A stretch of 64,000 nucleotides of DNA, taken from IMG/VR virus record IMGVR_UViG_3300046171_000202, positions 1,225 to 65,224 of that record. One strand, 5' to 3'. Within the stretch, counting starts at the first letter, position 1, and each line of letters opens with the position of its first letter. Both the position numbers and the translations under genes were made by a program. This document shows, in pieces, positions 4,058-59,448 of this stretch. The notes under the pieces are model-generated. The model was not told the origin of the DNA. It saw nothing but the letters and a program-made list of their open reading frames with translations, and searched no databases. Source of the stretch: a virus (Duplodnaviria; Caudoviricetes).

Positions 4058-4060
4058 AAA

Positions 4061-4942: not shown

Positions 4943-4944
4943 CT

Positions 4945-6109: not shown

Positions 6110-6129
6110 AAATAAAAATAAAAAAAATT

Positions 6130-7350: not shown

Positions 7351-7366
7351 CAATTAAATACAATTA

Positions 7367-14630: not shown

Positions 14631-14826
14631 TATAGGTAAAGATTATAAGAACGAAGCAATGCATTACTCCGTAGGCCAAGAGGTTTACGGAGGACATGTA
14701 ATAGATTCGATACTTGAAGAAGATGAAAAGTATAGGATTTACATTACTAAAAATAATGAGGTTTTGCCATGGAAAGACTTTAACAAGAACATGGCTATTG
14801 CAGTTGAATATAATTTAGAATATTAA
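14608..14826 (+). CDS. Hypothetical protein (MELIRKISIGKDYK…); probable start 14608
   Basis: In-frame ATG overlapping the upstream gene end is more plausible than 14545. Confidence 0.65.
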   Translation: MELIRKISIGKDYKNEAMHYSVGQEVYGGHVIDSILEEDEKYRIYITKNNEVLPWKDFNKNMAIAVEYNLEY

Positions 14827-15422
14827 TGCACGGTTGGGATAGTTTTATAGTGTCACCTATTAGATCAAGATATGACAACACTAAGAAAGTTGGCGATGTA
14901 GATCTTATATTAAACACTGAGATATTTACTCATAAGAACGTAAGCAATAACGCTATAGTTGTTGGTTTGCCAAAGAATAAAAAAACTGATATACAAGTTG
15001 GTGATGAGGTTATCATACACCATAATGTATTTAGAAGATGGCATGACGTCAGGGGCAAAGAACAGAACAGTAGAAGTTTTTTTACTGAAGACAAGTACTT
15101 TGTTAGCGACGATCAGTTATACATATATAAACACAACGAAGAATGGAAATCACTAGATGACTATTGCTTTGTAAAACCTATAGCTAACGATGATATGTTT
15201 TCTTTAGAAAAAGAAAAACCATTAGTTGGTATAGTTAAATACTCTAATGATATTTTAGAAAGCGTAGGTATAAAAGTAGGAGATAAGGTAGGGTTTATAC
15301 CTAATAGTGAGTTTGAGTTTATTATAGATGGCGAGCGTGTTTATAGAGTAAGAACAAAAGTAATTACAATTAAATATGAACACGAAGGAGAAGAAAGAGA
15401 GTATAATCCAAGCTGGGTATAA
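14826..15422 (+). CDS. Protein with two GroES-like segments (second co-chaperonin-like gene)
   Basis: IQVGDEVIIHHNV and GIKVGDKVGF…FIIDGERVYRVR both match the Cpn10 VKVGDxV…IDGExY pattern. Confidence 0.55.
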   Translation: MHGWDSFIVSPIRSRYDNTKKVGDVDLILNTEIFTHKNVSNNAIVVGLPKNKKTDIQVGDEVIIHHNVFRRWHDVRGKEQNSRSFFTEDKYFVSDDQLYIYKHNEEWKSLDDYCFVKPIANDDMFSLEKEKPLVGIVKYSNDILESVGIKVGDKVGFIPNSEFEFIIDGERVYRVRTKVITIKYEHEGEEREYNPSWV

Positions 15423-34858: not shown

Positions 34859-37800
34859 ATGTTTGAAACAGAAGACGGTGTAATTGATTTTAACAGTCTT
34901 AGCGAAATGGAGCAACTTGCTTTTAAAGCAAAGTATCCTAATGCTAAAGAAATAAGCGCTGCCCCTACAGGTGAAGACGAAACTACGAGCTACGATCAAT
35001 CTCTTCTAAACGCAATAAGATCCGTAGGTTCAAGCGAAGGAAAGTATGACAAATATAGAGAAAAAGGAATTGTTAGAAAACCAGAAGATGTAGAGTTGAC
35101 GAAATATGTAGGGCATGTTTCTTTAATGGATGCAGGGTCTACTAGACCTAGGCAGATAATTAAAAAAGAAGTATTAAGTAAAGAATATACAGCAGATATA
35201 GAAGTAGAGCTTGAAGATGGATCTAAGATATATTTAACGCCTAATGAAGTTAATGATCCCGATATAAATCCAACTTTAAATAGTAAAGAATCTGAAATTA
35301 AAAACAAATACTATTTAGAAGACGGAACGACAAATAGAGATATATTTAACAAAAAAACGCAAACAAAAGTCATATCTAGACCTAACTTCGAAGGTAGCAC
35401 TAGGATTGAATCAACAATAAAAGAAGAGGAAGTAACACCTTACGAGGAAGAAATTAAAGATACATATAATTTACTAAAAGAACTAGGTAAAGGTAGCGAT
35501 AAAATTCCAGAGAAATACAGAGATTGGGAAGGTGAAAATCCGCCTATAGAGTTGGTTCAAGACTATGTTGCAGACTTAAAATACAGGCAAGAAATAGCAA
35601 AAGCTAGAAAAGAAGAATATGACAAAGCTGTTTCAACTTTCACTAAAGACGAGCAAGAAGCTACTAGAATACAAGTAGAGAAAAGAAAAGAGAGAGCTGA
35701 ATCATTTTTAGATAAACCTGAAATAAAAGATCTTAACATTAGATTAGAGTCATACCAAAATGACCCTAGATATATTCAAAATTTAAAAATAGCAAAAAAA
35801 TTTGAAAACGGTGAAACTTTAACTCAAGGTGAAATCAAACAATACCAAAACAACGCTGTAGAATTAAACGAGATAGATAGCAAAATACACGAAGACTATG
35901 AAAAATATAGTCTAGCTATAGAAGAAGTTTCTGATTCAGCTGAAGAGTTAGACCTTCTGAAAAGAGATTATAGTTTGCTAAATAAATTTGGTTTTAATGC
36001 AGCCTCTACATTGAGTGGTCTTAGTTTTGGTTTATTAGAATATTTAGCTCCACTAAGTGGCATGCCAGGGTCTAACGAGATAATGGAGCAAATGTCTATA
36101 AAAAGAAGAAAAGAGTTAGAAGAGGCAAGAGAAAAATATAGACCTGATGTTGCCTTTGAAGATGCCTTTAGTAGCTTAGACAACTTTGGTAGATTTATAA
36201 CAGAAGAAACAGGAAGACAGTTACCTATATTCGCATTGATAGCAGCTTCCGGTGGAGCAGCTACCGCCCTTGGCGCAACATCTTTAGGTGCTGGCGCTGT
36301 TTCAGGTATAACTCTAGGCACTATGAGTGCTGGCCAGCAAATAGGTGACATGACATATGAAGAATTTTTAAGTAAGTACAACGATATAAAGGCTTATGGT
36401 AGAAATTTAGAATATAATGATAAAGAGTATAGCGACTTAAATAAGTTTTTAGTAGGAACAGGGTTTGGTGCAGCAGAAGGTTTACTTGGTGCAGCGCCTA
36501 CATTTATTCTAGGTAGTAGATTTTTCAATAACGCTACTAAGTCTTTTATAAAAGCAGGTGAAAAAGGATTGTTGGCTAAAATACCTACCACTACTTTTCA
36601 AAAAGCTTTAAACTTTGGTAAGCCGTTCGCTAAAGAATTTGTCATAGGATCAGCTGAAGAGGCTATAACTGAGGGTTTAACTACTTTAACGCAAAACATA
36701 ATAACTAGAAACTCTAATATATTTGAAGGAGTAGGTCACGCAGCTTTCTCAGGTGGTTTTTTCGGAGGTGCATTAGGAGGCGGAAGTGTAGCTATGGGGT
36801 CAGCTTTAAGCATGTCTATGAATACTGCTGAAAGAGCTCAAATACAAGATCTTTTAAATCAAAAGCAAGACATACTAAAACAATTATCATCTTTAGATGG
36901 TAGAACAAAAGGTGCTTTAGCTTTAAAAAACAGGGCCGAAAGTATAGAAAAAGAAATATCAGACAAAATGTTGACAGCTGAAAAAGCTTGGTTGTCTAAA
37001 ATGAGTAAACCAAACTTTGAAGCTTATACTAAAACCCTAGACGCACAAGCTAGACTAAGACAACAAGCGTTTGATATAAAGAACGACGAAACACTTAGTA
37101 AGGCAGAAAAGAAAAAAGAAATTGATTTGCTTGCAATAGATTACCAAGTATTACAAGGACAAATAGAAGCATTTAGAAACCCATTAGATTATGCTAACAA
37201 GTATCATCTTTTAAAGACAACTGACGAAGCTAGATATAACGAAATAAACAAAGAAGCATCAGATAAACTAAGCTCTGAAGGCGTAGATCTAACTAAAGAA
37301 AAAATAGATAAAGAAGCTTACGAAATATATCTAAACCAAGAATTAGAATCGTCTAAGAAATCAGCTAATAAAGCTTTGAAAAACTTAAAATTAAAGCACA
37401 ATAAATTTAATTTTAAAACAGAAAAAGATGCGATAGCTGAAGCTAATAAAATATTAAAACAAGAAAATCTAGACGACTTAACTAAGTCTTTTTGGAAAGA
37501 TGTTATAAATAACCCAGGAAGAATAAATGGTCAAGCAGCTAATATAAACGGAACGTACACATATATAACTATAGATGAAACTGCTTTAAAAAATGAAAGA
37601 TCAGGCACTGCAACGCATGAAGTTGGTCACATAGTTTTTTGGGATTTATTAAGAAGGGCAAGGGAAGAAGGTGGAAAGTCTGACATTGCGTTAGATTTTG
37701 ATTCTATGGCTAAAGATATTGAAAAATATTTAAAAGCTACACACCCTGAAATACACGCTGAAATGTTTGGCAAGCGAGATATAACTCAAAGAGTTGAAGA

Positions 37801-40800
37801 AGCTGACGGAGTTTTAGATTCTGAAGAAATAGTTATGGGCTTTGTTGAGCGTATAGGTAGAATAGATAAAAATAAAAAAGTAACGCAAACATTTTTATAT
37901 AGACTTGGTCAAATATTTAACACAAAAGGCAATATTCCTACAGATCTATCTACGCAGCCAGCTATAGTAAGCTTTATATCTAGCTTGGCAGAAAAAATAA
38001 AAGATGGTACCTTAAGCAAAGAGCAATTAGATGTAGCAGCTAAAAGTGATATATTCAAAAGTTTAGTTGTTAAAGAAAAAGCTAAAGGTACTGAAGATAT
38101 AAAAGCAAAGCCAGAAACTAAAAAATCTTTAAGTATACTAAATACTATAAATAACTTAGTACCTAAAGACGTAAAAACAAAAGCAGAGTTTCAAGGAGCT
38201 AAAGTATTTAACCCAATATACGAAGCAACACAACCTGGAGGCGCCATATATAACTACGTTAACTCTAGGGCTTTATCTAGAGAAGAAGCAGAGCTAATGC
38301 TTGAAGGAATAGTTGATAGATTGATAAACTACGACCCAGCAGCTGTTAGAAAAACTAAAAGCGGTGAACCAATCACCTTTGGCGAGTTTATATTTGCTAA
38401 TACTAGATTTAGTAAGCTAGATGCTAAAAAACAATTAGCCATAGAATCTGAAAGACGAGCTGAAAGCTTAGACACAGAAGAAGCTAGACAAGTTGCAGAG
38501 CCAGTAGCTGAAACTACAACAACTGAAGCTCCAAGAGTTGAATACCAAAATTTAGTAGAAGCTAGCGTGTTGCCAGCTGATATGGTAGCAAAAGTAAAAG
38601 ACAAAATACTGCTTATAACTAAAACGCTTAAATCTCGCATCGATGCAGCAGTATCTATAAATAAGACTGTAACACCTTTAATGTCTGAGATTAAGAAAGA
38701 GATAGGTAAGCAAGCTGATATTGAGTTTAAGAAAATGCTAGGTGCTAAACGCGGTGGAGAACTTAGAAACAACTTCTTAAAACTTAAAAAGCCTATACTT
38801 GAAAACATGACCACAACTTGGCTTATGCAAGGTATGCCTTTTGCTATTCAAAAGTCTGTTGATGGTAAGTTTACTTCTGACTGGGAGGGTAAAAAAATAG
38901 ATCGTGAAAGCGTTGGTACTGATAAGGCAGGTAGAACTTCAGGCGCTCAGCTGGTTAGAAGACTACCTAATGCTGCTAATAAAATTACTGACGAGCAGTT
39001 TTTAACTTACATGTTTAAAGGCGATGAAGTTATTAGGGGCAGAAAAGAAGCATTGGCTAAAGCGTTGGCCGAAGAATATGCTTTTGATACATATGGTCAA
39101 GAACTTTTAAATCCTAGTAGCGAAATAAGAAAAGCTTTTGAAGAAAACCAAGAAAGATTGGGCACTGTTTTAGCGGACAATTTTGTTCAAGAGTTCAACA
39201 AGCAGTCAGAGAGAGGTAATATAAAGAGATCTGTGTCAAGACTGTATGATGCCGCTAAGAATGATGCTACTATAATAGACAATTTTATTGAAGGAATAAA
39301 CACAGAAACATTTATAAATAGATTAGTAGCTGAAGATGGTGATTTGTTTAGAGCTATAGTGGGCCATTTTGAAGAAAACGAAATAGCCAATTTAGATGGA
39401 ACTAAATTAAAACGCATAGCTGATCAAATAAGTAGTAATGCTTTATTTAATAACTATCAATTCCAAATAAAAAGTAGAGATAAAAAAAATGTAGCTATAG
39501 ACTTATCTTTAGACATTACTAGAGAAATAATTTCTCCTATAGAATATAAAGATATTTTTGCTCAAGCAGGTATTGAAAGAAAGTTTGATCTTAAAAATCT
39601 AGATCTTATTAATGAAGCTAGGTTAGCTTCTAAAAAGCTTTTTGATTTTTTAGGAGAAGATGACTTTATAAGAGGTTGGTATGATGGTCTTCAAAAACCA
39701 GGAGGCTTAGCCGGATTCGTGCCTAAAAAACAGCCTAAAGGCTTAATATTGACACTAGATGAAGTAGAGTTAAGACCAAAAGGAAAATCAAGCAGAAACG
39801 GTAAGTATGCTAACACCGCTGATATAGATAACGCTTTAGGTATACTGACTACTAAAGGTAAGAAAAGACCAGTAGACCAATCCAGAAAAAATTGGTTTCC
39901 AGGAGACGCTTTTAACAGGCTTGACAACGAAGGTAAGATAAACTTTGTAAAAGATCTATATAAAGAAGGCGCAAAAGATAAAGAAATATATTTAAAATCG
40001 TTAGATTTTTTGGCTAATTCAGTGAAAGACGGTAGTATATCGCTAGCCGCTGCAGAGGCTTTGATAATAGGTCAGTTTGCTGACATGAACGGAGTAGGCA
40101 AAGCAATGGCTTCGCCTAGATTCGTGCCAGTTAAAAACGATGGAACAATAGCCACTATTGAAGAGCTTGCTGAAATGGGGTTGGCTTTTGACAAAGATAA
40201 ATTAGTACTCGAACATGTCATTACAGCTAAGACGATGGCAACTAATAGTGTAAAGTATATTATTAATAAAGACGCTAATGTTTTGAAAGATATAAAAACA
40301 CTTTTAAAAGATTATGATACAGCTATTTTGCCCGATAAACTAGATAAGATATTAAGAGAAAGAGGTACTCAAGAAAAAATGGGTATAGGTTATAGACCTG
40401 GAGATCCAATATTTGATGTTAGATATAAAGATTTAGGCATCATGTTTCTTGATGTTAAGACTGGAAATTTTGTAGGTTCTTTGTTTTCTAAAACTAATCC
40501 AGAAAATGCTAATAAAAATAGTAACTTAGACAAAGCTTTTAAAAACGCAGCCAAAAGATCTTACTCTAAAAATCCAAAAGGTATAAGTGTTTATGACTTT
40601 GATGATACATTAGCGTTTAGTAAAAGTCAGATCATAGTTAAAAAGGATGGTAAAACATTTAAAATAAACGCAGCACAGTTTGCTAAGCAAGGCGAAACAT
40701 TATTAGCCGAAGGAGCTGAATTTGATTTCAGTGAATTTAACAAGGTGGTTAAAGGTCAGCCCGGACCACTAATTCCAAGAATACAAAAAGCAATAGATAA

Positions 40801-43267
40801 ATTTGGTAACAAAAATATATTTATTCTAACTGCTAGACCAGTCGCTTCGGAAAGTGCTATACACGCGTTTATGAAAGGCTTAGGTATAGATATTCCACGC
40901 GCTAACATAACAGGACTTGCTAACAGTACAGCTCAAGCAAAGGCTGATTGGATGGTTGGCAAAGTTGCTGAAGGTTTTAACGACTTCTATTTCGTTGATG
41001 ACGCTATTAAAAATGTTCAAGCAGTTAAAGATGTTCTAGAGACTTTCGATGTTAAAAGCAAAGTTCAACAAGCTATAGCTCAAAGAAAGCGTAGTATGTC
41101 TTCTGATTTAAACGAAATGGTTGAGCGTAACAAAGGTGTTAGGGCTGAAACTACTTACTCCAAGGTATTAGCTAGAAAGAAAGGTGCTAAGAAAGGTAAG
41201 TTTAAGTTCTTTGTTCCTTATTCAGCTGAAGACTTTAAGGGTCTAACGTCATACACTCTAGCAGGTAAAGGTAAACAAGGAGAAGCTGATCAAAGATTTT
41301 TTGACCAAAACTTAATACTACCTTATACTAAAGGTATTGCGGCTATGGAAGGTGCTACTCAAGCGTTGAAAAATGATTATAAAAACTTACTTAATATGTT
41401 TGGTCTTAAAAAACAATTGCCTAGAAAAATAGGTGATACAGACTTTACTACAGACCAAGCCGTAAGAGTTTATTTGTGGGATAAACAAGGTTTTGAAATA
41501 CCTAATATATCTCAGCGTGACCAAAACAAGCTAAGTAGTCTTGTATCTAAAGACCCTGACTTAGTTGGCTTTGCAGAAGGTTTAATGGCTGTATCTAAAA
41601 AAGATCAGTGGGTTAATCCAAAAGATCATTGGGATGTTGGTAGTATACTAAAAGATCTTAATGATATAACTGACAACGTTAACAGAAAAGAGTATCTAGC
41701 CGAGTTTATCGAGAACGTTGATGAAATGTTCGATAAAACAACTTTAAATAAGTTAGAGGCTATTTATGGCACTAACTATGTAGATGCTTTACAAGACTCA
41801 ATACGTAGAATGAAGTCTGGTAGCAACACACCAAGGTCAGCTGGTAAGATAGAAAGAAAATGGTTGAACTGGGTAAATAACTCTGTAGGTACAATAATGT
41901 TCTTTAACAGAAGATCAGCGTTGCTTCAAATGTTATCATTCACTAACTTTATAAACTGGAGTGATAATAATCCTGCTAAGGCAGCTTTAGCTTTTAGTAA
42001 TCAGCCTTTATATTGGAAAAAGTGGGTTGAAATATTTAACTCTGATAAATTAAAAGAAAGACGTGGTGGTTTAAAATCAGATATACAAGAATCTGAAATA
42101 GCTAACCAAGCTAAGAACTCTAAAGATAAAGCTGCTGCAGTAGTTTCATATTTACTTAAGATAGGTTTTACACCAACGCAAGTAGCGGATAGTTTTGCTA
42201 TTGCAACTGGTGGTGCTACATTCTTAATAAATAGAACTAAGAAATACGAAAAGCAAGGGCTTTCAAAGAAAGAAGCTGAAGCAAAAGCATTTGAGGACTT
42301 CGGTAGAATATCAGATGAGACACAACAGTCTGGTGACCCAATGCTTATATCGCAGCAACAGTCTAGTCACTTAGGTCGTTTAATATTGGCTTTCCAAAAT
42401 ACACCTATGCAATACACTAGGTTAATGAAAAAAGCTGGTAAAGACATAATAAATAGAAGAGGTAGCGACGTAGAGAACTTAAGTAAAATAGCTTACTATG
42501 GCTTTGTACAAAACTTAATATTCTCTTCTTTGCAGTCTGCTTTATTTGCATTAATACCTGGTTTTGATGATGAAGAAGAAGACGATGCCAAACTTGAAGA
42601 TAAAGCTATAAGAACTGCAAACAGCATGGTTGACACTATATTAAGAGGCAGTGGGCTAGCTGGTGCAGTAGTATCTACACTTAAAAACGCTATAATGCGT
42701 TATAAGAAGGAAGATAAAAAAGCACAAGAAAGATATGGAGGAGGTGATCAAACCTATACTATGTTGGAACTTGCAAACATATCTCCACCAATAGGATCTA
42801 AGCTTAGAAAAATATATTCTGCAATACAAACTAAAAAGTTTAATCAAGCGGTTATAGATGAAATGGGTTACGATTTAACAGTTTTTGGTAGGTTTAATCC
42901 TTCACCTAACTACGAAATAATAGCAAATATAACTTCTGCTGTAGGAAACCTACCGTTAGATAGATTACTATCAGAGATTAAATCTATTAATGAAGCTTTT
43001 GATAGCAGAAATACGTCATACCAAAGGTTAGCTTTAGCTTTAGGTTGGAGAACTTGGGATGTTAATGTTAAAAACGAAGAGCAAGATTTAATTAAATCTG
43101 TAGCTAAAGCAAGAAAAAAAGAAGCTTCTAAACAAAAAGCTAAAGACAAAAGAAAAGCAAAAAGTTTAGATAAAAAAATAAAAAAAGAAGAAGAAAAAAA
43201 GAAAGCGATAAAAGATAAAAAAAACCCTGATTACGAGTTGCTAAAAATAATTAGATCAATAAATTAG
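34859..43267 (+). CDS. Giant (2802 aa) multidomain internal virion/polyvalent protein with membrane-like segments, a HExxH zincin motif and a HAD-like domain
   Basis: Gly/Ala hydrophobic stretches around 36200-36800; HEVGH at 37616-37630; HAD motifs VYDFDDT (DFDDT at 40595-40609), ILTAR and FVDD. Confidence 0.7.
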   Translation: MFETEDGVIDFNSLSEMEQLAFKAKYPNAKEISAAPTGEDETTSYDQSLLNAIRSVGSSEGKYDKYREKGIVRKPEDVELTKYVGHVSLMDAGSTRPRQIIKKEVLSKEYTADIEVELEDGSKIYLTPNEVNDPDINPTLNSKESEIKNKYYLEDGTTNRDIFNKKTQTKVISRPNFEGSTRIESTIKEEEVTPYEEEIKDTYNLLKELGKGSDKIPEKYRDWEGENPPIELVQDYVADLKYRQEIAKARKEEYDKAVSTFTKDEQEATRIQVEKRKERAESFLDKPEIKDLNIRLESYQNDPRYIQNLKIAKKFENGETLTQGEIKQYQNNAVELNEIDSKIHEDYEKYSLAIEEVSDSAEELDLLKRDYSLLNKFGFNAASTLSGLSFGLLEYLAPLSGMPGSNEIMEQMSIKRRKELEEAREKYRPDVAFEDAFSSLDNFGRFITEETGRQLPIFALIAASGGAATALGATSLGAGAVSGITLGTMSAGQQIGDMTYEEFLSKYNDIKAYGRNLEYNDKEYSDLNKFLVGTGFGAAEGLLGAAPTFILGSRFFNNATKSFIKAGEKGLLAKIPTTTFQKALNFGKPFAKEFVIGSAEEAITEGLTTLTQNIITRNSNIFEGVGHAAFSGGFFGGALGGGSVAMGSALSMSMNTAERAQIQDLLNQKQDILKQLSSLDGRTKGALALKNRAESIEKEISDKMLTAEKAWLSKMSKPNFEAYTKTLDAQARLRQQAFDIKNDETLSKAEKKKEIDLLAIDYQVLQGQIEAFRNPLDYANKYHLLKTTDEARYNEINKEASDKLSSEGVDLTKEKIDKEAYEIYLNQELESSKKSANKALKNLKLKHNKFNFKTEKDAIAEANKILKQENLDDLTKSFWKDVINNPGRINGQAANINGTYTYITIDETALKNERSGTATHEVGHIVFWDLLRRAREEGGKSDIALDFDSMAKDIEKYLKATHPEIHAEMFGKRDITQRVEEADGVLDSEEIVMGFVERIGRIDKNKKVTQTFLYRLGQIFNTKGNIPTDLSTQPAIVSFISSLAEKIKDGTLSKEQLDVAAKSDIFKSLVVKEKAKGTEDIKAKPETKKSLSILNTINNLVPKDVKTKAEFQGAKVFNPIYEATQPGGAIYNYVNSRALSREEAELMLEGIVDRLINYDPAAVRKTKSGEPITFGEFIFANTRFSKLDAKKQLAIESERRAESLDTEEARQVAEPVAETTTTEAPRVEYQNLVEASVLPADMVAKVKDKILLITKTLKSRIDAAVSINKTVTPLMSEIKKEIGKQADIEFKKMLGAKRGGELRNNFLKLKKPILENMTTTWLMQGMPFAIQKSVDGKFTSDWEGKKIDRESVGTDKAGRTSGAQLVRRLPNAANKITDEQFLTYMFKGDEVIRGRKEALAKALAEEYAFDTYGQELLNPSSEIRKAFEENQERLGTVLADNFVQEFNKQSERGNIKRSVSRLYDAAKNDATIIDNFIEGINTETFINRLVAEDGDLFRAIVGHFEENEIANLDGTKLKRIADQISSNALFNNYQFQIKSRDKKNVAIDLSLDITREIISPIEYKDIFAQAGIERKFDLKNLDLINEARLASKKLFDFLGEDDFIRGWYDGLQKPGGLAGFVPKKQPKGLILTLDEVELRPKGKSSRNGKYANTADIDNALGILTTKGKKRPVDQSRKNWFPGDAFNRLDNEGKINFVKDLYKEGAKDKEIYLKSLDFLANSVKDGSISLAAAEALIIGQFADMNGVGKAMASPRFVPVKNDGTIATIEELAEMGLAFDKDKLVLEHVITAKTMATNSVKYIINKDANVLKDIKTLLKDYDTAILPDKLDKILRERGTQEKMGIGYRPGDPIFDVRYKDLGIMFLDVKTGNFVGSLFSKTNPENANKNSNLDKAFKNAAKRSYSKNPKGISVYDFDDTLAFSKSQIIVKKDGKTFKINAAQFAKQGETLLAEGAEFDFSEFNKVVKGQPGPLIPRIQKAIDKFGNKNIFILTARPVASESAIHAFMKGLGIDIPRANITGLANSTAQAKADWMVGKVAEGFNDFYFVDDAIKNVQAVKDVLETFDVKSKVQQAIAQRKRSMSSDLNEMVERNKGVRAETTYSKVLARKKGAKKGKFKFFVPYSAEDFKGLTSYTLAGKGKQGEADQRFFDQNLILPYTKGIAAMEGATQALKNDYKNLLNMFGLKKQLPRKIGDTDFTTDQAVRVYLWDKQGFEIPNISQRDQNKLSSLVSKDPDLVGFAEGLMAVSKKDQWVNPKDHWDVGSILKDLNDITDNVNRKEYLAEFIENVDEMFDKTTLNKLEAIYGTNYVDALQDSIRRMKSGSNTPRSAGKIERKWLNWVNNSVGTIMFFNRRSALLQMLSFTNFINWSDNNPAKAALAFSNQPLYWKKWVEIFNSDKLKERRGGLKSDIQESEIANQAKNSKDKAAAVVSYLLKIGFTPTQVADSFAIATGGATFLINRTKKYEKQGLSKKEAEAKAFEDFGRISDETQQSGDPMLISQQQSSHLGRLILAFQNTPMQYTRLMKKAGKDIINRRGSDVENLSKIAYYGFVQNLIFSSLQSALFALIPGFDDEEEDDAKLEDKAIRTANSMVDTILRGSGLAGAVVSTLKNAIMRYKKEDKKAQERYGGGDQTYTMLELANISPPIGSKLRKIYSAIQTKKFNQAVIDEMGYDLTVFGRFNPSPNYEIIANITSAVGNLPLDRLLSEIKSINEAFDSRNTSYQRLALALGWRTWDVNVKNEEQDLIKSVAKARKKEASKQKAKDKRKAKSLDKKIKKEEEKKKAIKDKKNPDYELLKIIRSIN

Positions 43268-47075: not shown

Positions 47076-48036
47076 TTACCATATATCTTCAAAATCTTCA
47101 CCTTCATTAGCTTTAGAATAATCTGTAGGTCTCATAGCAAAAAAGTCTGTATGAGTGACACCACCTGTTAAGTGGTAGAACCAATCAAGGTTGTCTGCAG
47201 CTTCTTGCGAATAAGTAAATGTTGGATCGTAACCTAGTTCTTGTAGTTTTTCGTTAGCTCTTTTTCTAACAAACTGCTTTAAGTCTTCAGACTTTAGGTT
47301 TTCTATATCACCCATCTCAAACATTTTATCTATATATTTCTCTTCAAGCTCAACCATTGTTTCCGCTGCCTTATGTATATCATCTTGGCACTCATCTCTA
47401 AGAGTAGGTATTTCATCGCACATGTGATTAAATAACTTACAACCCATACGTGAATGTAAGCTTTCGTCTCTTACAGACCATTTCATTTGCTGGCCAATAC
47501 CTTTTAGTAGGTTGCGAAGTTGAAAGCTGTATAGCACTGCAAAAGCAGAGTACAACGAAACGCCTTCTGCAAACGCACTGAATATAGCTAGCGACTTACC
47601 AATACCTACAGGATCATTACCATCGTATGCTACTAAGTTTTCAAATCGTTCAGCTGTTGCTGGCTCGTGTAAAAATGCTTCAAAGTCTTCAAGCCCTAGA
47701 GTTTCGATTAAGGTAACTATAAGCTACAGCGTGTATTGTTTCTTGCGATCCAAACATCATAGCCATTTGCTGTATTTCGTGCTTAGGAAACCAACCAACA
47801 ACTTTTTGCGTCCAATAGTCAGACACAGCACATTCAGTCTGAGCAAAACCCAGCAGGATATTTCCCACTAGGTTTTTCTCTTTATCAGTTAGTTTTTCGT
47901 TCCAGTCTTTTACATCACCCGACATAGGTATTTCTGTATGTAACCAAAACGCTTGAGCTTGTTTCAACCAACCCTCAGTATAATACTCAGGGTACTCAAA
48001 TGGTTTGTATGCAATTCTTTCTTTAAATAAACTCAT
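47076..48036 (-). CDS. nrdB: Ribonucleotide reductase beta subunit, with one apparent +1 frameshift at about 47706
   Basis: QAFWLHTE, QETIHAVAY, AEGVSLYS, RDESLH and TDFF; removing one base restores YLNETLGLEDFEAFLHEP. Confidence 0.9.
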
Positions 48037-48479: not shown

Positions 48480-48889
48480 TCTTTTTGATTCTGAGGTTTA
48501 TACAAAGTACAAGGTCCTATCTTGCTGCTTGCTATTAAACTCTTAAACATTTTCCATCTAAGTGGAAAAGATTCATTTGCTCTACCTTTGCATTCTATTA
48601 TAAAGCCTTTACCTATAAAATCTGGAGTATACTTAATATTTAAAACCTTTTTATTACCTCTGTTTTTATATTCTCCTTTTCCATTGCCACATCTTTCGTA
48701 GCACTCAAAAGGAAAATTAAAAGCTTCAACAAGTTCAAATGTTTCTCCTTCATATAAGGCATGTATGTTAGCTTCTTTTAAAGCTTTGTACATATACTTT
48801 TCTAAACCAGATGCAAAGGTTATCCCGTCATAACTAGTCTTTTTAGCTCTGACAGGACCTTTACTTTTTCTTTTATAAGACTTCTTCAT
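48434..48889 (-). CDS. PD-(D/E)xK endonuclease, T7 endonuclease I-like (resolvase candidate)
   Basis: FASGLE…YTPDF…IIECKG motif. Confidence 0.75.
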   Translation of the reverse strand: MKKSYKRKSKGPVRAKKTSYDGITFASGLEKYMYKALKEANIHALYEGETFELVEAFNFPFECYERCGNGKGEYKNRGNKKVLNIKYTPDFIGKGFIIECKGRANESFPLRWKMFKSLIASSKIGPCTLYKPQNQKECDETINLILSSKNS

Positions 48890-49151
48890 TTTTATCTTCA
48901 GTAAGTCTTGCTAGCATTGCATCTTCGATCTCGTCTCGTAAACAATGCCTTGCTGACTCTAAGTACAATATTGCATCCATTAATTCTTCCTGTACATCAA
49001 CAATAAATGCACCAAGATCTTTTTCTCTGTTTACAACTTCTTGCATCATAGACTGACCATATTTTTTCATACCAAACTCGCTACGTTCGTCGATCTTTTT
49101 AATTATTTTCTGTACAATAGGGTCTTCAGTTTTTATTCTATAATCTTTCAT
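48873..49151 (-). CDS. Small all-alpha NTP-pyrophosphohydrolase-like protein
   Basis: RSEFGMKKYG…QEELMDAILYLE acidic helix motif. Confidence 0.5.
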   Translation of the reverse strand: MKDYRIKTEDPIVQKIIKKIDERSEFGMKKYGQSMMQEVVNREKDLGAFIVDVQEELMDAILYLESARHCLRDEIEDAMLARLTEDKNEEVL

Positions 49152-49152
49152 A

Positions 49153-49956
49153 TTAGTTGTCTTTTACAAATGTTCCGTTAATCATTTTACCTGTTCGTTT
49201 ACTTATCACGTTGTATGCTGACTTAATGCATGACTCGATAGTAACTCCTCTTTGATGTGCTAGGTTAGTTAACACAACTACCATATCGCCAATAGCATCT
49301 ACAACTTCTGGTTGATCATTGTTTAGCAATGCTTTACCAAGCTCACCAAACTCCTCAGCAAGTTTTATATACTGCGTTTTTGTATCGCCTTTATCGTATA
49401 TACCTTTATCTTGAGCCCATTGTCTTATTAGACCAAAGTAGTATTTGTCTTTATCGGGCTCTTGTACTACGTAAGTACCATTGCTTGAACTGGGAATCCA
49501 TCCTGACTTAGGATCTTTATTTTGAAACATATTCCAATATGCTTTGTTATATATGTAACATCTCTCGGTATTGAACATGGATGTTTTTGCATTATCTACT
49601 ATCCATGGTATTGTTTGTTCGTTTATTTTAAACTGGCCAAACTCCGTCTGCCATTTCTTACCTATGTTGTCCATGAGCCTGCCTTTTAGTTTATTAACAG
49701 GACATGGGAATGTCGAGGTTTGTTCTGTTGCGTTTATTTTCATTTTATTAAATAAGTTTTTATAAGGTTGCAAGTCTTTACGATAGCCATAAGACTGTTG
49801 AAGTTCTAACTCCAAGTCTGATATATAATCTATATCTTCTGACTGGTCTAGAACTTCGTACTCTCCCTCCTTGTAGCCTTGCACAAGGGTAACTCTGGTA
49901 TCAAGATCACGTGTTACACCGATCTTTTTACCAGGAATGTGATATAAATAGTACAT
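49153..49956 (-). CDS. Fusion: GIY-YIG-like N-terminus plus MazG-like NTP pyrophosphohydrolase C-terminus
   Basis: MYYLYHIPGKKIGVT at the N-terminus; KLAEEFGELGKAL…DAIGDMVVVLTNLA at the C-terminus. Confidence 0.7.
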   Translation of the reverse strand: MYYLYHIPGKKIGVTRDLDTRVTLVQGYKEGEYEVLDQSEDIDYISDLELELQQSYGYRKDLQPYKNLFNKMKINATEQTSTFPCPVNKLKGRLMDNIGKKWQTEFGQFKINEQTIPWIVDNAKTSMFNTERCYIYNKAYWNMFQNKDPKSGWIPSSSNGTYVVQEPDKDKYYFGLIRQWAQDKGIYDKGDTKTQYIKLAEEFGELGKALLNNDQPEVVDAIGDMVVVLTNLAHQRGVTIESCIKSAYNVISKRTGKMINGTFVKDN

Positions 49957-50597
49957 TAAATTTTATCGTTATATAAATGTAGGTTATGTGCATGATGATA
50001 ATACCAACCTACTGGTATGTTTAATTTTTCTGCAATCATTTTTTGTAACATGCTAAATTGGTATTGGTCATTGCAGAAACCATACCATAAGTCGTTAGAT
50101 CGCATATATACAGACATATTGAGCTTGTCATCTATAATCGTAAACTGAACTGCATAAGTACACGGTGTATCGTGCTTATATGTGTCGTGTTCTTTAGCGT
50201 CGTATATAGATATAGCTGCTTGTCTAGTATTCTTGTTAGATTTTAATAAACCTATAACGTGATCTATTTGATTATTTCGCTGCCATTGGTAACCGTAATT
50301 ACTATTTACATTACCTTCAGCGTTTGCCATACGTTTCCATATAGCTGGTACTTTGCCATATATATCACCTAGCTTTTTAATACTAGGATCACCAGACAAA
50401 TACCATTGCCATTCAGCGTCAGCATATTCTTTGTTCCATTTTCTGAAACCTGATTTTATTTTATTGTTAACAGGGTTAGCTATATGAAAACCTACATTAA
50501 ATAAAGCTTTAGTGCCGTCAAAATCAGCGCCAGTGTCTTTTATCTTAATGTAAAAGTAATCAAAAGCTTCGCTTGCATTTTTAAACTTTGTTCGCAT
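49956..50597 (-). CDS. Thymidylate-synthase-fold enzyme with dCMP hydroxymethylase (T4 gp42)-type signature; probable start 50597
   Basis: PAIW…GNVNSNYG, catalytic PCT, MRSNDLWYGFCND and NLHLY. Confidence 0.8.
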   Translation of the reverse strand: MRTKFKNASEAFDYFYIKIKDTGADFDGTKALFNVGFHIANPVNNKIKSGFRKWNKEYADAEWQWYLSGDPSIKKLGDIYGKVPAIWKRMANAEGNVNSNYGYQWQRNNQIDHVIGLLKSNKNTRQAAISIYDAKEHDTYKHDTPCTYAVQFTIIDDKLNMSVYMRSNDLWYGFCNDQYQFSMLQKMIAEKLNIPVGWYYHHAHNLHLYNDKI

Positions 50598-50847
50598 ATT
50601 TATTATAATAGTATTTTGTATATTCTGCTGCTTTCTGTTTTGCATCGTAGTAGTTGTAGGCTTCGTCTGTTTGACCAACTAGCTTTCTGCTAGGATATCT
50701 TCCAGTCTCTACAAGTACTCTATATAATCTAGATCGCCAAGCTATTTCTCTGGTTGTTATACATATATTATTTCTAACACACCACATCCAAGCTTGCATC
50801 TCTTCTTCGTTCATCGCATAATGCTTTTGTTGCTTTTTTACTCCCAT
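50581..50847 (-). CDS. Hypothetical protein
   Basis: 88-aa ORF coupled between the helicase and the TS-like gene. Confidence 0.6.
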   Translation of the reverse strand: MGVKKQQKHYAMNEEEMQAWMWCVRNNICITTREIAWRSRLYRVLVETGRYPSRKLVGQTDEAYNYYDAKQKAAEYTKYYYNKYANKV

Positions 50848-52543
50848 GGAAGATCATCTTGCTTTATAGATGTTTCAGGTACAAATCTACCTGATGCCCT
50901 ATCCCAAGTAAAATGAGCTTCAGCTCCGTTCTCACCAAGGTTTTGAAACTTAACCTTAAGTACTTTAACTTTAGTAGTACCTGCATCGTAATCTCTATGA
51001 ACTAATAAGCCGTGATAACTAGCATCGTACCATTCGCCACCACCTTTAATATTATACATTGTTGGCTCTTGTATCTTGCCGTCTTGGCCTTTCATCATTT
51101 TAGTTGGATGAGCTACTATGAAAACTAAACAGTCATACTTTTTAGCAAATGTTTCGATCTTCATTAAGTAATCCATAGTATAACGATTAACATCATCTGT
51201 CTTAGCGTTTATATCTCTTACCTTATTATAAGGATCGATCACTAAGCATTTAATACCTTTACGTTTTACTAATTCAGCACCTTTGCGTAATACTGAGTCT
51301 AAATCGTATTTATCCATGTCTATAAAATAGAAATGATCGTTAACGTGCTCAGCAACTTCGTTCCATTTAGGCTCCGCCAATATCTCCGACGTTTGGCATA
51401 TCACCCCATACTTTACGCATAAGCTTATGAGCATGTAAATATGTAGGTTGATTTTCAGGACTTGCAAAAGCTGTTTTCCATCCGTATTGTTGGTTATAGC
51501 CGACTACCATTTGGTCTACAAAGTCTGACTTACCTGAACTAGGTATACCTGTTACAGTTATAAACTGCTTAGTATACGTAGAAAATATTTCGTCAAAATT
51601 AGGTAGACCAACTTGGAAACCGGGTTTAAAACCATTTTTAACAAAGTCAGTTATCTCGCCTTCTATATCTTTAAACGTAGTTACGTTTTCCAAAGGATAA
51701 GGTCTAGCTTTAGCTATTGACTCAGCCAACTTATCTTTACCGTGTTTAAGTAAGTATTCGTTAGCATCTTTACAGTCGTCGAAGTCCTACTATAAAGCAG
51801 GTTTCAGCTCCTAGCCTACGTACAAGTTCGGCTTGAAGCATTTGACCTGGTTCGTCTTTATCTATAGCTAGAAGTATTCTTTCTTTATCTTCGAAATAAT
51901 CAATACAATTATCTAAGTAATCTAGATTATTATTAGTTAGCGTTGCACCGTTAGGTACCGAGACTACATTTTTAATACCAGCTTCGTGAAAAGCTAGCAC
52001 GTCCATCTCGCCTTCAGTTACAACGCAACTGTCATACCCTATTATACTGTTGATATTGTAGAATACTTTTTCAGCTCCTTTGTATAGTTTAAAGTTTTTG
52101 CGACCATCTCTGTATTTAACATTGATTAGCTGATCGCCCATCATATAGTTGAACTGTATTGTGTTTTCTGTTTTACCTGTTTGCGGCATATACTCAGGAC
52201 CTTGACCAACGTGCAGTTGATCTAATGTTTCTTGAGATATACCTCTTGTTTCAAACCATTGTGTTACTTTGTCTTTAACTGGTAAATACTTAGTAACTTC
52301 AGGTCTAACATAAACACGCTCGCTAGCTCCTTTCCTTTGATACGTATGTAGCTGGAAAGAAGTGCTACAGTTATGGCAAGTACCGAGACCACGTTCCCAA
52401 TCATATGAAGCACATTTTGCTTTTTTATTTGCGGGCTTTCTAGTGTGCGAGCAAAGAGGGCATACACCCTGACTTTTCCCAGATTCTAGACCGTATTGAT
52501 TGAACTGGTCAATCGTAAACCCATTGATCTCTGTTATTTGCAT
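50838..52543 (-). CDS. Primase-helicase (T7 gp4/Twinkle-like), with two apparent +1 frameshifts at about 51787 and 51369
   Basis: Zn finger CPLC…CHNC, TOPRIM TEGEMD and DKD, CKDANEYL after correction, Walker A GIPSSGKS, LVIDPYN, IVAHPTK and KVKFQNLG. Confidence 0.9.
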
Positions 52544-55956: not shown

Positions 55957-56094
55957 TTATTTTTTTGTTTTATTTTTCTTTGTTTTAGTTACTTTTTTAA
56001 CTTCGTTTACATATGCAGCATCTTCTAATGCGGCAACTAATCCATTAAAAAAATTACTTATTCCTTTAAATAATTTTATTATAATCTCCTTCAT
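55957..56094 (-). CDS. Small protein, 45 aa, with basic tail (MKEIIIKLFKGISNFFNG…KKNKTKK)
   Basis: Hand translation; fills the gap in the operon. Confidence 0.5.
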   Translation of the reverse strand: MKEIIIKLFKGISNFFNGLVAALEDAAYVNEVKKVTKTKKNKTKK

Positions 56095-56545
56095 AAATTT
56101 TCTCATTTTTGTTTGCTACTGTGTGTTTCTCAGCAATATAGTATCTCCAGTAGGCCTTTATACTACACGCGCTTTTGTATTCATCTGGCATTGCTTGAGG
56201 AGGCTGCTTAAAGTCTGACGTAGTCATGCCCATAGGAGGCCATTTAAGAGCATCTCTGCATTTAGTTATTGTTAAATGTGTTTTGCCATATCTGAACGTA
56301 TATTCATCTCCTAAAGCCATCATATGTTGGTATAACCAATTGTAATGCTTAGTATTAGAACGAGTCCAGATGGTGCTTGGATGGTTAATGTGGCTTACTT
56401 TGTATGGAACGTTGTCACCATTGCCATGAAAATGATGCGCCGAGCATAGCATTTGAGCTGACTCAAGAACCATTTTAACAACGTGTTTGTTGTACTGTAA
56501 CCTAGCAGCCGTATCTGGATCTGCGTCTAAATAAAATATGTTCAT
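56066..56545 (-). CDS. Pyrimidine-dimer DNA glycosylase (DenV/endonuclease V-like) family protein
   Basis: MNIFYLD…KHVVKMVLESAQML…HINHPSTIW…EYTFRYGKTH. Confidence 0.75.
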   Translation of the reverse strand: MNIFYLDADPDTAARLQYNKHVVKMVLESAQMLCSAHHFHGNGDNVPYKVSHINHPSTIWTRSNTKHYNWLYQHMMALGDEYTFRYGKTHLTITKCRDALKWPPMGMTTSDFKQPPQAMPDEYKSACSIKAYWRYYIAEKHTVANKNEKIYEGDYNKII

Positions 56546-57054: not shown

Positions 57055-57272
57055 AAGTTTGCTTCTTTAACGAAGTAGTTGAATACTTCTGGTATATGTT
57101 TCTTGTAATACGGCTGTGTATCCATACACCAGTCCATTAGTTTTTCTCTACTTGTAAATTTTTCGTTTAGTGTTGGTATGTTAGGATTTTGTATCATTCT
57201 AAACATAGGGTTTAGCTCATCAATAAAATTTCCAACTGTCCAGCCTTCGTATATGTGTTTATCTCTATTCAT
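57051..57272 (-). CDS. Hypothetical protein (MNRDKHIYEGWTV…); probable start 57272
   Basis: In-frame ATG overlapping the ligase end. Confidence 0.6.
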   Translation of the reverse strand: MNRDKHIYEGWTVGNFIDELNPMFRMIQNPNIPTLNEKFTSREKLMDWCMDTQPYYKKHIPEVFNYFVKEANL

Positions 57273-58102
57273 AATTTCTAATACATTTAAATAGTGGGTG
57301 TCTGTAGCTATTAGCTTTAGTTCTTTGAAAATAAGTAAAGGTAGCACGCTTGCCAATAAAAGAATCTACATTCTTGAGCATTGTTTTAAGATCCTTGTAC
57401 GAGTAGCCCTTGCCCGGAGGACAGCCGAACACTATCCCGTCGTCATCTTGCATAATGAACTTGCCAAGCGTGCCAGTCCGTTTACCTTTACCAGTAACAT
57501 AATCGATGATAGTAGCTTCGGTGTCGCTGAAGTCTTTGAACTTCATTAGATCGTAAGATCTACCGTGCTTGTATATACCATCGCCATTTCTTATAATTGA
57601 GCCTTCGTAGCCGAGTGATAGAAACTCTTCATGCTGAACTCTAGCGTAATTGTAGCTATCAACTAGTAATGCAGGAACGTGCTTGATTTGTGCATCGTAG
57701 AAACCTGCGTTTACAAGTAACTGCATACGTGCTTGATAGTTGTCATACATAACACCATCGAAAGTAATCATATACGTGAAACTGTACTAGATGCTGAGCA
57801 TCTAGCCTGTCTTCATCTGTAGGCTTTTGCTTGCGTACTAGTGATATGATCTTTTCGAAGTCGTGCTTTAGCTTGTGATTGTAAAGCTCGCCATCGAGTA
57901 CTATATCTGGTTGTTCAGCAAAGAAAGGCTTGAGTGCCATTTCAATGTGACGCACGTTCATGAACTGCTTGCCGTTGCGTGAGAATGCACCGTCTTTCGT
58001 GAATAAGCAGCGAACGCCGTCGAGCTTTGCTTGAATGTAAACTGGTCTTGTAAAGTCGATACGTGAGTTATCGAACTTGTGTGCTAACATGGCTTTTTTC
58101 AT
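57265..58102 (-). CDS. ATP-dependent DNA ligase, with one apparent +1 frameshift at about 57760
   Basis: KLDGVRC (motif I), LDGELY, FHVYD, EGSIIRN, LMKFK and a C-terminal OB domain. Confidence 0.88.
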
Positions 58103-58115
58103 TTTGTTTTATATT

Positions 58116-58147
58116 ATTATCCTTCTTGTGTCGTATTTGTTTTGTAA
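58116..58147 (-). promoter_or_regulatory. Promoter-like motif copy 3
   Basis: attatc-cttcttgtg-tcgtat-ttgttt-tgtaa; upstream of the ligase. Confidence 0.75.
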
Positions 58148-58581
58148 TTTTTATCGTACTGTTGTAGAGCTTTTTCTGGTTTGCCTACAAATATAACAGT
58201 TCTAGTTGAAACTTTATATATAGACATATAAGTGTCATGACCTTCTTTAGGGTATAAAGTATATATGTACTCAGCCCAACCGATCTCGTTATCTATTGGG
58301 TGCAGATACATTTGACCTGCTCGATCTTTAAATTTAGCTATGAACTGAGCTGCAAAGCAACCTGCTCCATTAGCTATCTCATTAAGATTTTTGTTATTAC
58401 CTAAGCCATTAATGATCTTTATATCTTTTAACCACTCTGCGTACTCAACAGCCATATACTCTGGATAACCATCGTACTGTTGGTATATGTTAACTAACGC
58501 TAACTCAGCTCTAGTATGACCTTCACTGTAAGACAAACCTTCTTGTCTTGGTATTATTCTTGTTAAACTTCTTGTACCCAT
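58117..58581 (-). CDS. Phage hypothetical protein (MGTRS…YQQYDGYP)
   Basis: 154-aa ORF with the MGTRS/DGYP motif type common in phage early regions. Confidence 0.7.
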   Translation of the reverse strand: MGTRSLTRIIPRQEGLSYSEGHTRAELALVNIYQQYDGYPEYMAVEYAEWLKDIKIINGLGNNKNLNEIANGAGCFAAQFIAKFKDRAGQMYLHPIDNEIGWAEYIYTLYPKEGHDTYMSIYKVSTRTVIFVGKPEKALQQYDKNYKTNTTQEG

Positions 58582-58991
58582 TATATTTTAATTATTTTTA
58601 TTCCTGATTCTTTCATAAGATCAAGCCCTTCGGTTGATCCTTCATAAACTTCTTTGTATACTACCTTAACTATGCCTGCTTGTATTATTAGCTTGCTGCA
58701 ATCTTTACAAGGAGACAACGTGCAGTACAATGTAGATCCGCTTGAGCTGTTAGTAGATTTAGCTACTTTGACTATAGCGTTAGACTCTGCGTGCAGTACA
58801 GACCATTTTGTCTTGTTACCTTCTTCGCAAGTATTACAGAAGCCAGAAGGTGTACCGTTATAACCAAAGGATAATATATTATTATCTTTAACTATAATGG
58901 CACCAACCTTCTTTCTACTGCATTTACTTAGCTGGCTAACTTCACCAGCTATGTTCATATACACTATGTCAAGTTCTTTAATATTAGGCAT
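58581..58991 (-). CDS. dCMP deaminase
   Basis: KVGAIIV, GYNGTPSG, HAESNAI and SPCKDC zinc motifs. Confidence 0.92.
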   Translation of the reverse strand: MPNIKELDIVYMNIAGEVSQLSKCSRKKVGAIIVKDNNILSFGYNGTPSGFCNTCEEGNKTKWSVLHAESNAIVKVAKSTNSSSGSTLYCTLSPCKDCSKLIIQAGIVKVVYKEVYEGSTEGLDLMKESGIKIIKI

Positions 58992-59448
58992 TGATCACTA
59001 CGTCGTTTTGAAGTACCCAACCTTCAGCAAGTAATTCATCTTGCATTTCTTCTACTTTTTCATCAAAGTAATCTTCATATACTTCTGATATTACATCTTG
59101 AAAAGTATAGTTTTCATCTTCTAGCTCTGAGAAATATATCTTAGCACCATCTTTGATCGCGTGAGGCATTTCATCTAGCCAACCATTTTCGTAGTAGTAT
59201 ACATCTTCGGCAATATTAATTTGATTACCATCGCCATATGCGCATACGTGCACGTCATAGCCATCAGCTGTTGATTCTATATAGAACCATCTAGTACAAC
59301 TATTATCCCACATAGATACTATTTCAGCATCCCAGTGGTTTAGTACTACTTTAAGCTTGTCTTCGTGATCTGTATCATGCGGTTGAGTGATACCTTTTTC
59401 TTCTAGTTTTTCCCATAGAACTTCTTCTATTATAATTTTATTTGACAT
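58984..59448 (-). CDS. Acidic hypothetical early protein
   Basis: 154 aa, strongly Asp/Glu-rich; preceded by the promoter motif. Confidence 0.7.
   Translation of the reverse strand: MSNKIIIEEVLWEKLEEKGITQPHDTDHEDKLKVVLNHWDAEIVSMWDNSCTRWFYIESTADGYDVHVCAYGDGNQINIAEDVYYYENGWLDEMPHAIKDGAKIYFSELEDENYTFQDVISEVYEDYFDEKVEEMQDELLAEGWVLQNDVVINA

Follow-up and report, generated by a model that had tools for sequence, protein, structure and literature searches.

A putative dCMP hydroxymethylase encoded next to a MazG-domain protein in a complete phage genome, and its probable role in cytosine modification

The virus record IMGVR_UViG_3300046171_000202 (Duplodnaviria; Caudoviricetes) carries two adjoining minus-strand genes of particular interest, one for a 213-aa enzyme with the thymidylate synthase (TS) fold and one for a 267-aa protein that ends in a MazG nucleotide pyrophosphohydrolase domain. 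Coordinates below refer to the window, that is, the whole stretch of 64,000 nucleotides that was analysed (bases 1225-65224 of the 65,224-bp record, which CheckV rates as complete, 100%). The TS homologue lies at 49956..50597 (-), in an open frame that extends to 50678, and its start at 50597 agrees with the lengths of its relatives (213-218 aa). The start of the 267-aa gene (49153..49956, -) overlaps the stop codon of the TS homologue (TAATG), and a gene for a conserved helical protein of 92 aa (48873..49151, -) follows. Since a TS homologue with Asp177 is here paired with a nucleoside triphosphate (NTP) pyrophosphatase, as T4 gp42 is with gp56, modified cytosine is likely in this phage, and the residues of the enzyme suggest that its DNA probably contains 5-hydroxymethylcytosine (5hmC).

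The product of the gene belongs to the TS superfamily. Pfam PF00303 (Thymidylat_synt) matches the open reading frame (ORF) 49956..50678 (-) with an E-value of 2.2e-26 and a score of 93 bits (cut-off 24.3), and this is the sole PF00303 match in the record; Arg166/Ser167 and the catalytic Cys146 are aligned. Among 119 PDB matches, the deoxycytidine monophosphate (dCMP) hydroxymethylase of T4 (1b49) ranks top with an E-value of 4.9e-19, followed closely by the hydroxymethylase MilA (8.4e-18); the best true TS reaches 2.1e-16. Contigs from two independent public runs span the gene (49956-50597) and show zero indels. RNA-library contigs also span it (49922-51155, 78 differences), which does not by itself show transcription. 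For the comparison of residues, the protein was aligned with Escherichia coli ThyA, RB69 td, T4 gp42, RB69 gp48 and the homologues of SPO1, Vi01, phiW-14 and Xp12; those of SPO1, Vi01 and phiW-14 are labelled dUMP hydroxymethylases, which we take them to be, and T4 td was excluded as it is split by an intron.

The initial annotation had placed an Asp where dUMP-specific ThyA has Asn, and this holds: the codon at 50067-50069 is GAC, within GFCND, and aligns with N177 of E. coli ThyA and D179 of T4 gp42 (the corresponding E. coli ThyA sequence is RSCDVFLGLPFN). The gp42 motifs that it had named are likewise recovered by HMMER, which pairs 'vpaiw...gnvnsnyg' with 'tpkiw...geinsnyg', and 'mrsndlwygfcnd' with 'mrsndvvfgfrnd', of T4 dCMP hydroxymethylase. 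The Ser and Tyr of NSNYG, the Asp at position -3 from the catalytic Cys, Cys146, Thr147, Asp169 and Asp177 are the same in the query and T4 gp42 (structures 1b49/1b5e/6a9a), so that the equivalents of Ser94/Tyr96, Asp145, Cys148, Asp171 and Asp179 of the T4 enzyme are present within a shared fold. On the minus strand the Asp at -3, which belongs to the motif HDTPC, is encoded at 50169-50171, the catalytic Cys at 50160-50162 and the Asp169 equivalent at 50091-50093; the Ser stands two residues before the catalytic Tyr in NSNYG. Taken at the level of residues, Asp177 indicates a cytosine substrate.

What the enzyme would do to that substrate depends on positions elsewhere in the site. The query shares its Asp at -3 with T4 gp42 and the SPO1, Vi01 and phiW-14 homologues; Glu takes this place in RB69 gp48, Leu in both RB69 td and ThyA of E. 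coli, and Asn in the Xp12 homologue. According to a study of the T4 enzyme (PMC6400193), Asp145 activates the substrate water, the D145N mutant yields no 5hm-dCMP, Ser94 is conserved in the family, and the enzyme lacks the C-terminal tail with which TS seals the site for hydride transfer. That tail is also missing in the query, which ends 4 residues after Tyr209, as compared with 28 in T4 gp42, 55 in ThyA and a range of 55-67 across ThyA, td and the Xp12 homologue. A dCMP methylase, making 5-methyl-dCMP and hence 5-methylcytosine (5mC) in DNA as in Xanthomonas phage Xp12, would account for Asp177 equally well: the Xp12 homologue has it too, and TS mutants N177D/N229D methylate dCMP, as cited in PMC8670742. 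We take the methylase of Xp12 to be this homologue; the Xp12 genome paper (PMC7653180) defers the pathway itself. Because the query has Asp at -3 and lacks the tail, unlike the Xp12 homologue with its Asn at -3, Pro147 and long C-terminus (a 61-residue tail), the residues point to hydroxymethylation over methylation, and methylase activity seems improbable. The choice between 5hmC and 5mC, which had been left open, thus leans towards 5hmC.

Several other identities were considered and set aside. Canonical ThyA does not fit a protein with Asp177, Asp at the position of residue 143, Thr147 and so short an end, and the query scores only 74 bits with the NCBIfam equivalogs for TS, whose cut-offs start at 327. 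A 5-hydroxy-dCMP synthase was rejected on Asp169: the query has Asp there (RSND), while the aligned residue of RB69 gp48 is Asn. A recent paper (NAR 2026, PMC13326640) gives Asn169 (D169N) as diagnostic for flavin-dependent 5-hydroxy-dCMP synthases. RB69 gp48 and DLP3 gp80, which that paper describes as flavin-binding with Asn169, are TS homologues that resemble the query in being short, in having Asp177 and in their acidic residue at -3; the query differs in keeping Asp169 and in falling into another clade than RB69 gp48. MilA, a hydroxymethylase with Asp177, comes close to the T4 enzyme in its similarity to the query; its ribose preference is ascribed to Ala176 and Lys133. A CMP hydroxymethylase of this type was rejected, the query having Ser167 and Arg126 (RSND, TRQ) against Ala176 and Lys133 (RAND, SKR) in MilA, and Ser167 and Arg126 would make the query an enzyme of the deoxyribose type. 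This leaves the prospect of some other C5 chemistry on dCMP, be it flavin-dependent synthesis of 5-hydroxy-dCMP or addition of an undescribed group, or else of an ordinary dUMP TS. TS homologues have recently given unexpected chemistry (PMC13326640), and the very short C-terminus is unlike that of any tested enzyme. Set against this, Asp169 is retained where the 5-hydroxycytosine synthases have Asn169, the folate-side residues Glu58, Trp80 and Asp169 are all kept, and an ordinary TS is very unlikely with Asn177 replaced and the NCBIfam score so far under the cut-off; we therefore hold out little expectation for this group of explanations. The dCMP hydroxymethylase reaction remains, in our view, the quite probable activity of the product of 49956-50597.

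Phylogeny agrees with the residues. In a maximum-likelihood tree from a quick search, with 128 rows and ThyA as the root, the query falls in a clade of 26 rows with a Shimodaira-Hasegawa-like approximate likelihood ratio test (SH-aLRT) value of 99; the sister clade holds T4 gp42, and both lie in a clade of 94 rows (SH-aLRT 96), outside which stand RB69 gp48 and the dUMP enzymes. The comparison with ThyA, gp42 and dUMP enzymes, which the initial annotation had proposed as a check, thus groups the query with gp42 and apart from the dUMP enzymes. We take the tree as supporting, not decisive, for kinship with gp42.

The family is large and its signature is stable. A word-indexed search gave 8000 hits, the best 120 of which are 68-97% identical to the query and several of which lie on contigs of 60-65 kb; an exhaustive search with a limit of E <= 0.001 yielded 8206 representatives, and 491 IMG/VR stretches encode a relative. 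Asp169 and Asp177 are present in all 116 listed representatives of at least 190 aa; Cys is aligned at 146 in 115 of them, and 112 of these 115 have Asp at -3. Gene neighbourhoods were compared in a close set, the 80 best loci (L017-L096), and a distant set of 160 IMG/VR loci (L174-L333). The latter was gathered with two distant proteins as queries, as an alignment-based scan gave the close clade again; counts for the distant loci are lower bounds, many of these loci being short, and family names there come from one representative per BLAST cluster. The combination of Asp at -3, Asp169 and Asp177 is found in 80/80 close and 159/160 distant loci.

The second gene of the pair encodes a protein of three parts. 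Its C-terminal ~100 residues (aa 165-267, ~49156-49464, -) are a true MazG domain, for which dCTP hydrolysis is predicted: they match PF01503 (E-value 5e-6; 27.2 bits, cut-off 21.3), PF03819 and phrog_715 (5e-30), and in an AF2 model of the protein (predicted local distance difference test score, pLDDT, 81) they take the MazG fold, with VIA Z-scores of 9.7/9.7/9.5 to 1vmg/7yh5/3cra and a root-mean-square deviation of 2.2 over 82 residues to 1vmg. The fold matches also list the dCTPases DCTPP1/RS21-C6 and the MazG protein of S-2L (7ody, Z 9.1). The metal-binding motif EExGE...DAIGD is invariant in 18 sequences of the 267-aa protein, with E201, E202, E205, D220 and D224 unchanged throughout and E217 nearly so. 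All Foldseek and VIA rows obtained with the whole model lie at residues 160-267. The first 60 residues (~49777-49956, -) have a beta-beta-alpha-beta-alpha topology with invariant Y3, Y5, G13, R21 and E49, and the lead from a language-model atlas is T5orf172/MUG113 (scores 0.97 and 0.94); Pfam at E <=1 and a PDB profile search gave zero matches for this part, which we tentatively read as GIY-YIG-like (T5orf172-like). Between these two parts lies a middle domain of unassigned fold.

The pairing of the two genes is conserved. The 267-aa gene directly follows the TS homologue in 80/80 close loci, and in 67/67 of those with at least 3 kb of downstream sequence; of the 80 copies, 71 are full length and 5 consist of the MazG part only, the rest being cut by contig ends. 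Among the distant loci, 135 of 160 have a MazG-domain ORF <=3 kb from the TS homologue, as a stand-alone protein of ~101 aa in 114 loci and in the fused form in 21. The conserved unit is therefore the TS homologue with its MazG partner. T4 dCTPase gp56 matches PF08761 (dUTPase_2), presumably a member of the same all-alpha NTP pyrophosphatase superfamily as MazG.

Based on these observations, we propose that the two proteins act in sequence. The MazG-type pyrophosphatase, translationally coupled to the TS homologue, would hydrolyse dCTP to dCMP, which would both supply the hydroxymethylase with its substrate and exclude unmodified dCTP from replication. The 213-aa enzyme, folate-dependent and of the T4 gp42 kind, would then convert dCMP to 5hm-dCMP; this would be phosphorylated by host kinases and incorporated by the host polymerase, and the resulting 5hmC in phage DNA may shield it against host restriction. 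We give this chain as a whole, from MazG dCTPase through dCMP hydroxymethylase to 5hmC in DNA, a probability of roughly 0.6. Like T4 with gp42 and gp56, the query phage combines a TS homologue that lacks the C-terminal tail with an all-alpha NTP pyrophosphatase partner and has a dCMP deaminase in its genome. The differences are also plain. The query is ~35% identical by tblastn to homologues in T4-like phages over ~82% of the protein and is shorter than gp42 (213 against 246 aa); its partner is not a PF08761 protein like gp56 but a MazG/PRA-PH domain fused to a GIY-YIG-like domain and directly adjacent; and a gp1-type kinase, glucosyltransferases, td and a polymerase of its own, all present in T4, were undetected in the query phage.

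The proposed pathway also has close parallels outside T4. In the MetaGPA study (eLife 2021, PMC8670742), PF00303 showed the strongest association of any domain with viral contigs from sewage and coastal water whose cytosines are modified. Asp177 was seen mainly in modified contigs, and PF00303 co-occurs with PF01503 (PRA-PH), PF00383 and PF14437. The query phage resembles those contigs in having PF00303 with Asp177 and a residue other than His at 147, in PF01503, PF00383 and PF14437, and in its coastal/marine origin; unlike the 5-carbamoyloxymethylcytosine branch described there, it is missing a carbamoyltransferase. The closest annotated phage homologue (45% identity) is that of Bacteroides phage BF486P2 (L001), where a cluster at 3653-9681, mostly annotated as hypothetical, encodes a carbamoyltransferase, an AAA_28 P-loop protein, TS paralogue A, a dUTPase and TS paralogue B. 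This cluster looks like the MetaGPA 5-carbamoyloxymethylcytosine system; the carbamoyltransferase, AAA_28 protein, dUTPase and second TS paralogue are what the query phage lacks by comparison. In phage S-2L, MazZ and PurZ offer a further example of a small MazG-like pyrophosphatase adjoining an enzyme that makes a non-canonical deoxynucleoside monophosphate (dNMP), the S-2L pathway differing in that it concerns a purine. At distances of up to 3 kb from the TS homologue, the distant loci repeatedly encode DUF6378 (92/160), a pyridoxal phosphate-dependent enzyme (PALP; 55), an S-adenosylmethionine-dependent methyltransferase (38) and two ~300-aa proteins of unknown function (40 and 39 of 160). 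These recurrent neighbours suggest more, possibly hypermodifying, branches based on the TS homologue.

A number of points weigh against the proposed chain. The weakest link is that a phage dNMP kinase was undetected, though T4 needs its kinase gp1 for its own hydroxymethyl pathway. Six-frame family searches of the record found no Pol A, Pol B, ThyX or thymidylate kinase; a match to the kinase family PF02223 was absent; a Walker-A scan returned only the helicase and incidental sites in structural proteins, the amidase and ERF, with no N-terminal kinase candidate; and no glycosyltransferase turned up in Pfam and PHROG scans of the ORFs. The earlier statement that ThyA/ThyX, a dNMP kinase, a glycosyltransferase and a DNA polymerase are not visible thus agrees with these scans. 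With kinase and polymerase undetected, phosphorylation and incorporation would depend on host enzymes, and if 5hm-dCMP is made, all later steps would fall to the host, the DNA polymerase and glycosyltransferase being undetected as well. In E. coli, a modified base was incorporated only in trace amounts without the cognate kinase (PMC13326640). As to the enzymes, the 213-aa protein is shorter than every characterised family member, ending 4 residues past Tyr209; Arg127 is replaced by Gln and the equivalent of Arg21 is unaligned, both being positions of cofactor and phosphate binding. The tree came from a quick search, with T4 gp42 and RB69 gp48 on long branches. BLASTP of T4 gp56 against the 267-aa protein was not significant (E 0.62), small MazG proteins like it turn up in many phages (1195 records), and dCTP as substrate is only predicted. 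Finally, the TS homologue is absent from the two records searched among the closest annotated phages by terminase (MW202828 and Flavobacterium phage elemoE_6-9C).

Some of these points could instead be understood if the pair served to manipulate nucleotide pools, draining dCTP and dCMP into a nucleotide that goes no further, which might starve a defence system or the replication of the host, with canonical bases in the phage DNA for want of a kinase for 5hm-dCMP. The undetected kinase, polymerase and glycosyltransferase and the trace incorporation in E. coli all suit such a role. The phage itself, however, requires dCTP (its G+C content is 35%) and encodes a ribonucleotide reductase that makes more dNTPs, and the enrichment of Asp177 TS homologues in the cytosine-modified contigs of the MetaGPA study speaks for a modification that reaches DNA. 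Pool manipulation is, on balance, unlikely, and incorporation of 5hmC is the reading that we retain.

The dCMP deaminase was identified correctly from the start (58581..58991, -), with matches to PF00383 (E 1.2e-24) and phrog_174 (3e-52). It is an accessory gene, because it is present in only 4/80 close loci, as against 80/80 for the TS-MazG pair, and because it sits in a variable slot. In 21 loci with both flanking genes, the slot measures 20-2079 nt and holds assorted small ORFs, with the deaminase in 2. In the window this hot spot for variable cargo spans 58117-59448, between two genes for 154-aa proteins of unknown function, and the deaminase occupies it here and in L017 and L018. The hot spot of some relatives encodes a 104-aa protein that, we presume, resembles DUF1599/Nmad1, as a candidate only. 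Among the distant loci the deaminase is more frequent, lying <=3 kb from the TS homologue in 54/160, mostly directly upstream.

The deaminase raises the question of whether modified dCMP is deaminated further, to dTMP or to 5hm-dUMP, which would make for ThyA-independent thymidylate synthesis or DNA with 5-hydroxymethyluracil. This had been offered initially as one of two outcomes (5-methyl-dCMP to dTMP, or hm-dCMP to hm-dUMP). A deaminase in the window, the failure to find ThyA and ThyX and the 54 distant loci can be cited in its favour, and some dCMP deaminases do accept 5-substituted dCMP. T4, on the other hand, carries gp42 as well as a dCMP deaminase and is not known to couple them in this way. 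As many as 76/80 close relatives keep the TS-MazG pair without the deaminase, whose slot is variable, and on these grounds the coupled route finds no support. Its dTMP version would in addition require methylase chemistry, which the residues speak against, as does the missing tail. MetaGPA, moreover, selects for modified cytosine, and TS, PRA-PH and deaminase domains occur together in such contigs (PMC8670742). Coupling is accordingly the outcome that we expect least. The proximity of the deaminase in distant loci also fits ordinary T4 logic, by which hydroxymethylation and the supply of dUMP share the dCMP between them, and deamination of a modified nucleotide is unneeded to explain it; where present, the deaminase would most simply provide more dUMP and dTTP for a genome of 65% A+T.

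The type of pathway proposed is textbook, from T4, and the link of TS, PRA-PH and deaminase domains to modified cytosine is already in print, from experiments on metagenomes (PMC8670742). What would be gained is a wider range and a minimal set of genes; the principle is not new. A word search of the open-access literature listed no paper that links phages of Cellulophaga, Flavobacterium or Polaribacter with a dCMP enzyme or a hydroxymethylase. If 5hmC is indeed present in virions, a widespread group of phages of marine Flavobacteriia would have restriction-resistant DNA, with consequences for enzyme-based library preparation, methylation calling and studies of host defence, and pre-replicative replacement of cytosine would be feasible with a two-gene phage module and host enzymes. 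Three features deserve attention in their own right: the minimal 213-aa enzyme, the fusion of a GIY-YIG-like with a MazG domain, and the way in which the phage seems to rely on its host for kinase and polymerase. T4 EndoII is a GIY-YIG nuclease that attacks cytosine DNA, and one can imagine that the fusion unites the roles of T4 EndoII and gp56 in one polypeptide. This would be part of a broader reading, doubtful as it stands, in which an abundant marine clade of flavobacterial-type podoviruses of ~60-70 kb replaces cytosine by 5hmC through two phage genes together with host kinases and polymerase, with no sugar transferase, kinase or polymerase of the phage's own.

The 92-aa protein downstream of the pair was initially taken for a second NTP-pyrophosphohydrolase-like gene; that description stands for the 267-aa protein (PF01503, phrog_715, fold Z 9.7) and is not borne out for this one. 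Its gene is found downstream of the 267-aa gene in 61/67 loci with enough downstream sequence, and the protein has invariant R23, S24, G27, K30, Y31, G32, E55, E56, D59 and Y63. Comparison by hhalign gives a probability of 0.8% with the MazG protein and 2.2% with DUF6378, so neither assignment was kept. Pfam (E <=1) and NCBIfam searches gave zero matches, and PHROG matches are to families of unknown function only. A PDB profile search returned chance rows (E >1) and Foldseek one row (E 7.5); with a low-confidence model (pLDDT 71), VIA gives only long helices and coiled coils (Z <=5.7), and an atlas search yields viral hypotheticals only.

The genome is arranged in two halves. The plus-strand half has genes for GroEL/GroES-like chaperonins, for terminase, portal and virion proteins, for a crAss-type muzzle-protein domain and for two giant proteins; the minus-strand half holds, from ~44 kb, a replication and nucleotide-metabolism module with ribonucleotide reductase, a DUF1064 resolvase, the TS homologue with the 267-aa and 92-aa genes, primase-helicase, ERF, a PDDEXK exonuclease, ligase and the dCMP deaminase. 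The terminase is closest among annotated phages to that of an uncultured freshwater podovirus (63%); the other near phages are those of Flavobacterium, Cellulophaga, Tenacibaculum and Maribacter, all <60%, with listed Flavobacterium rows at 45%. Because these phages are among the terminase neighbours, a flavobacterial host is likely, as judged from sequence similarity. Megablast against annotated phages found no near-identical DNA.

Three genes of the minus-strand module are broken by frameshifts in the record, namely those for the ribonucleotide reductase small subunit (47076-48036), the primase-helicase (50838-52543, in three pieces) and DNA ligase (57265-58102). Their counterparts in relatives are unbroken in 63/63, in 61/61 and 66/68, and in 39/40 cases, respectively, and contigs from independent runs are one base shorter at 47706/47712, 51371/51372 and 51786/51788. 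The frameshifts are probably single-base insertion errors of the record, not biology.

Other gene products are worth recording. The GroEL-like chaperonin (530 aa) is ~42% identical to phage and bacterial GroEL and adjoins a Cpn10-like protein (210-2046), and a second GroES-like PHROG match in the genome lies at 14826-15422. A 1467-aa virion protein (25707-30110) has the C-terminal domain of a crAss-virus muzzle protein (PF25729, 4e-12). Of the two giant ORFs, that of 2172 aa (7367-13885) matches tail-fibre PHROGs and that of 2802 aa (34859-43267) has zero family matches. Lastly, a 159-aa protein (56066-56545) shows a weak match to pyrimidine-dimer DNA glycosylase (PF03013, 3e-4, under the cut-off) and a strong match to a PHROG labelled 'DNA binding protein' (1e-47); a glycosylase-like protein may be of interest in a phage whose DNA is predicted to carry modified cytosine.

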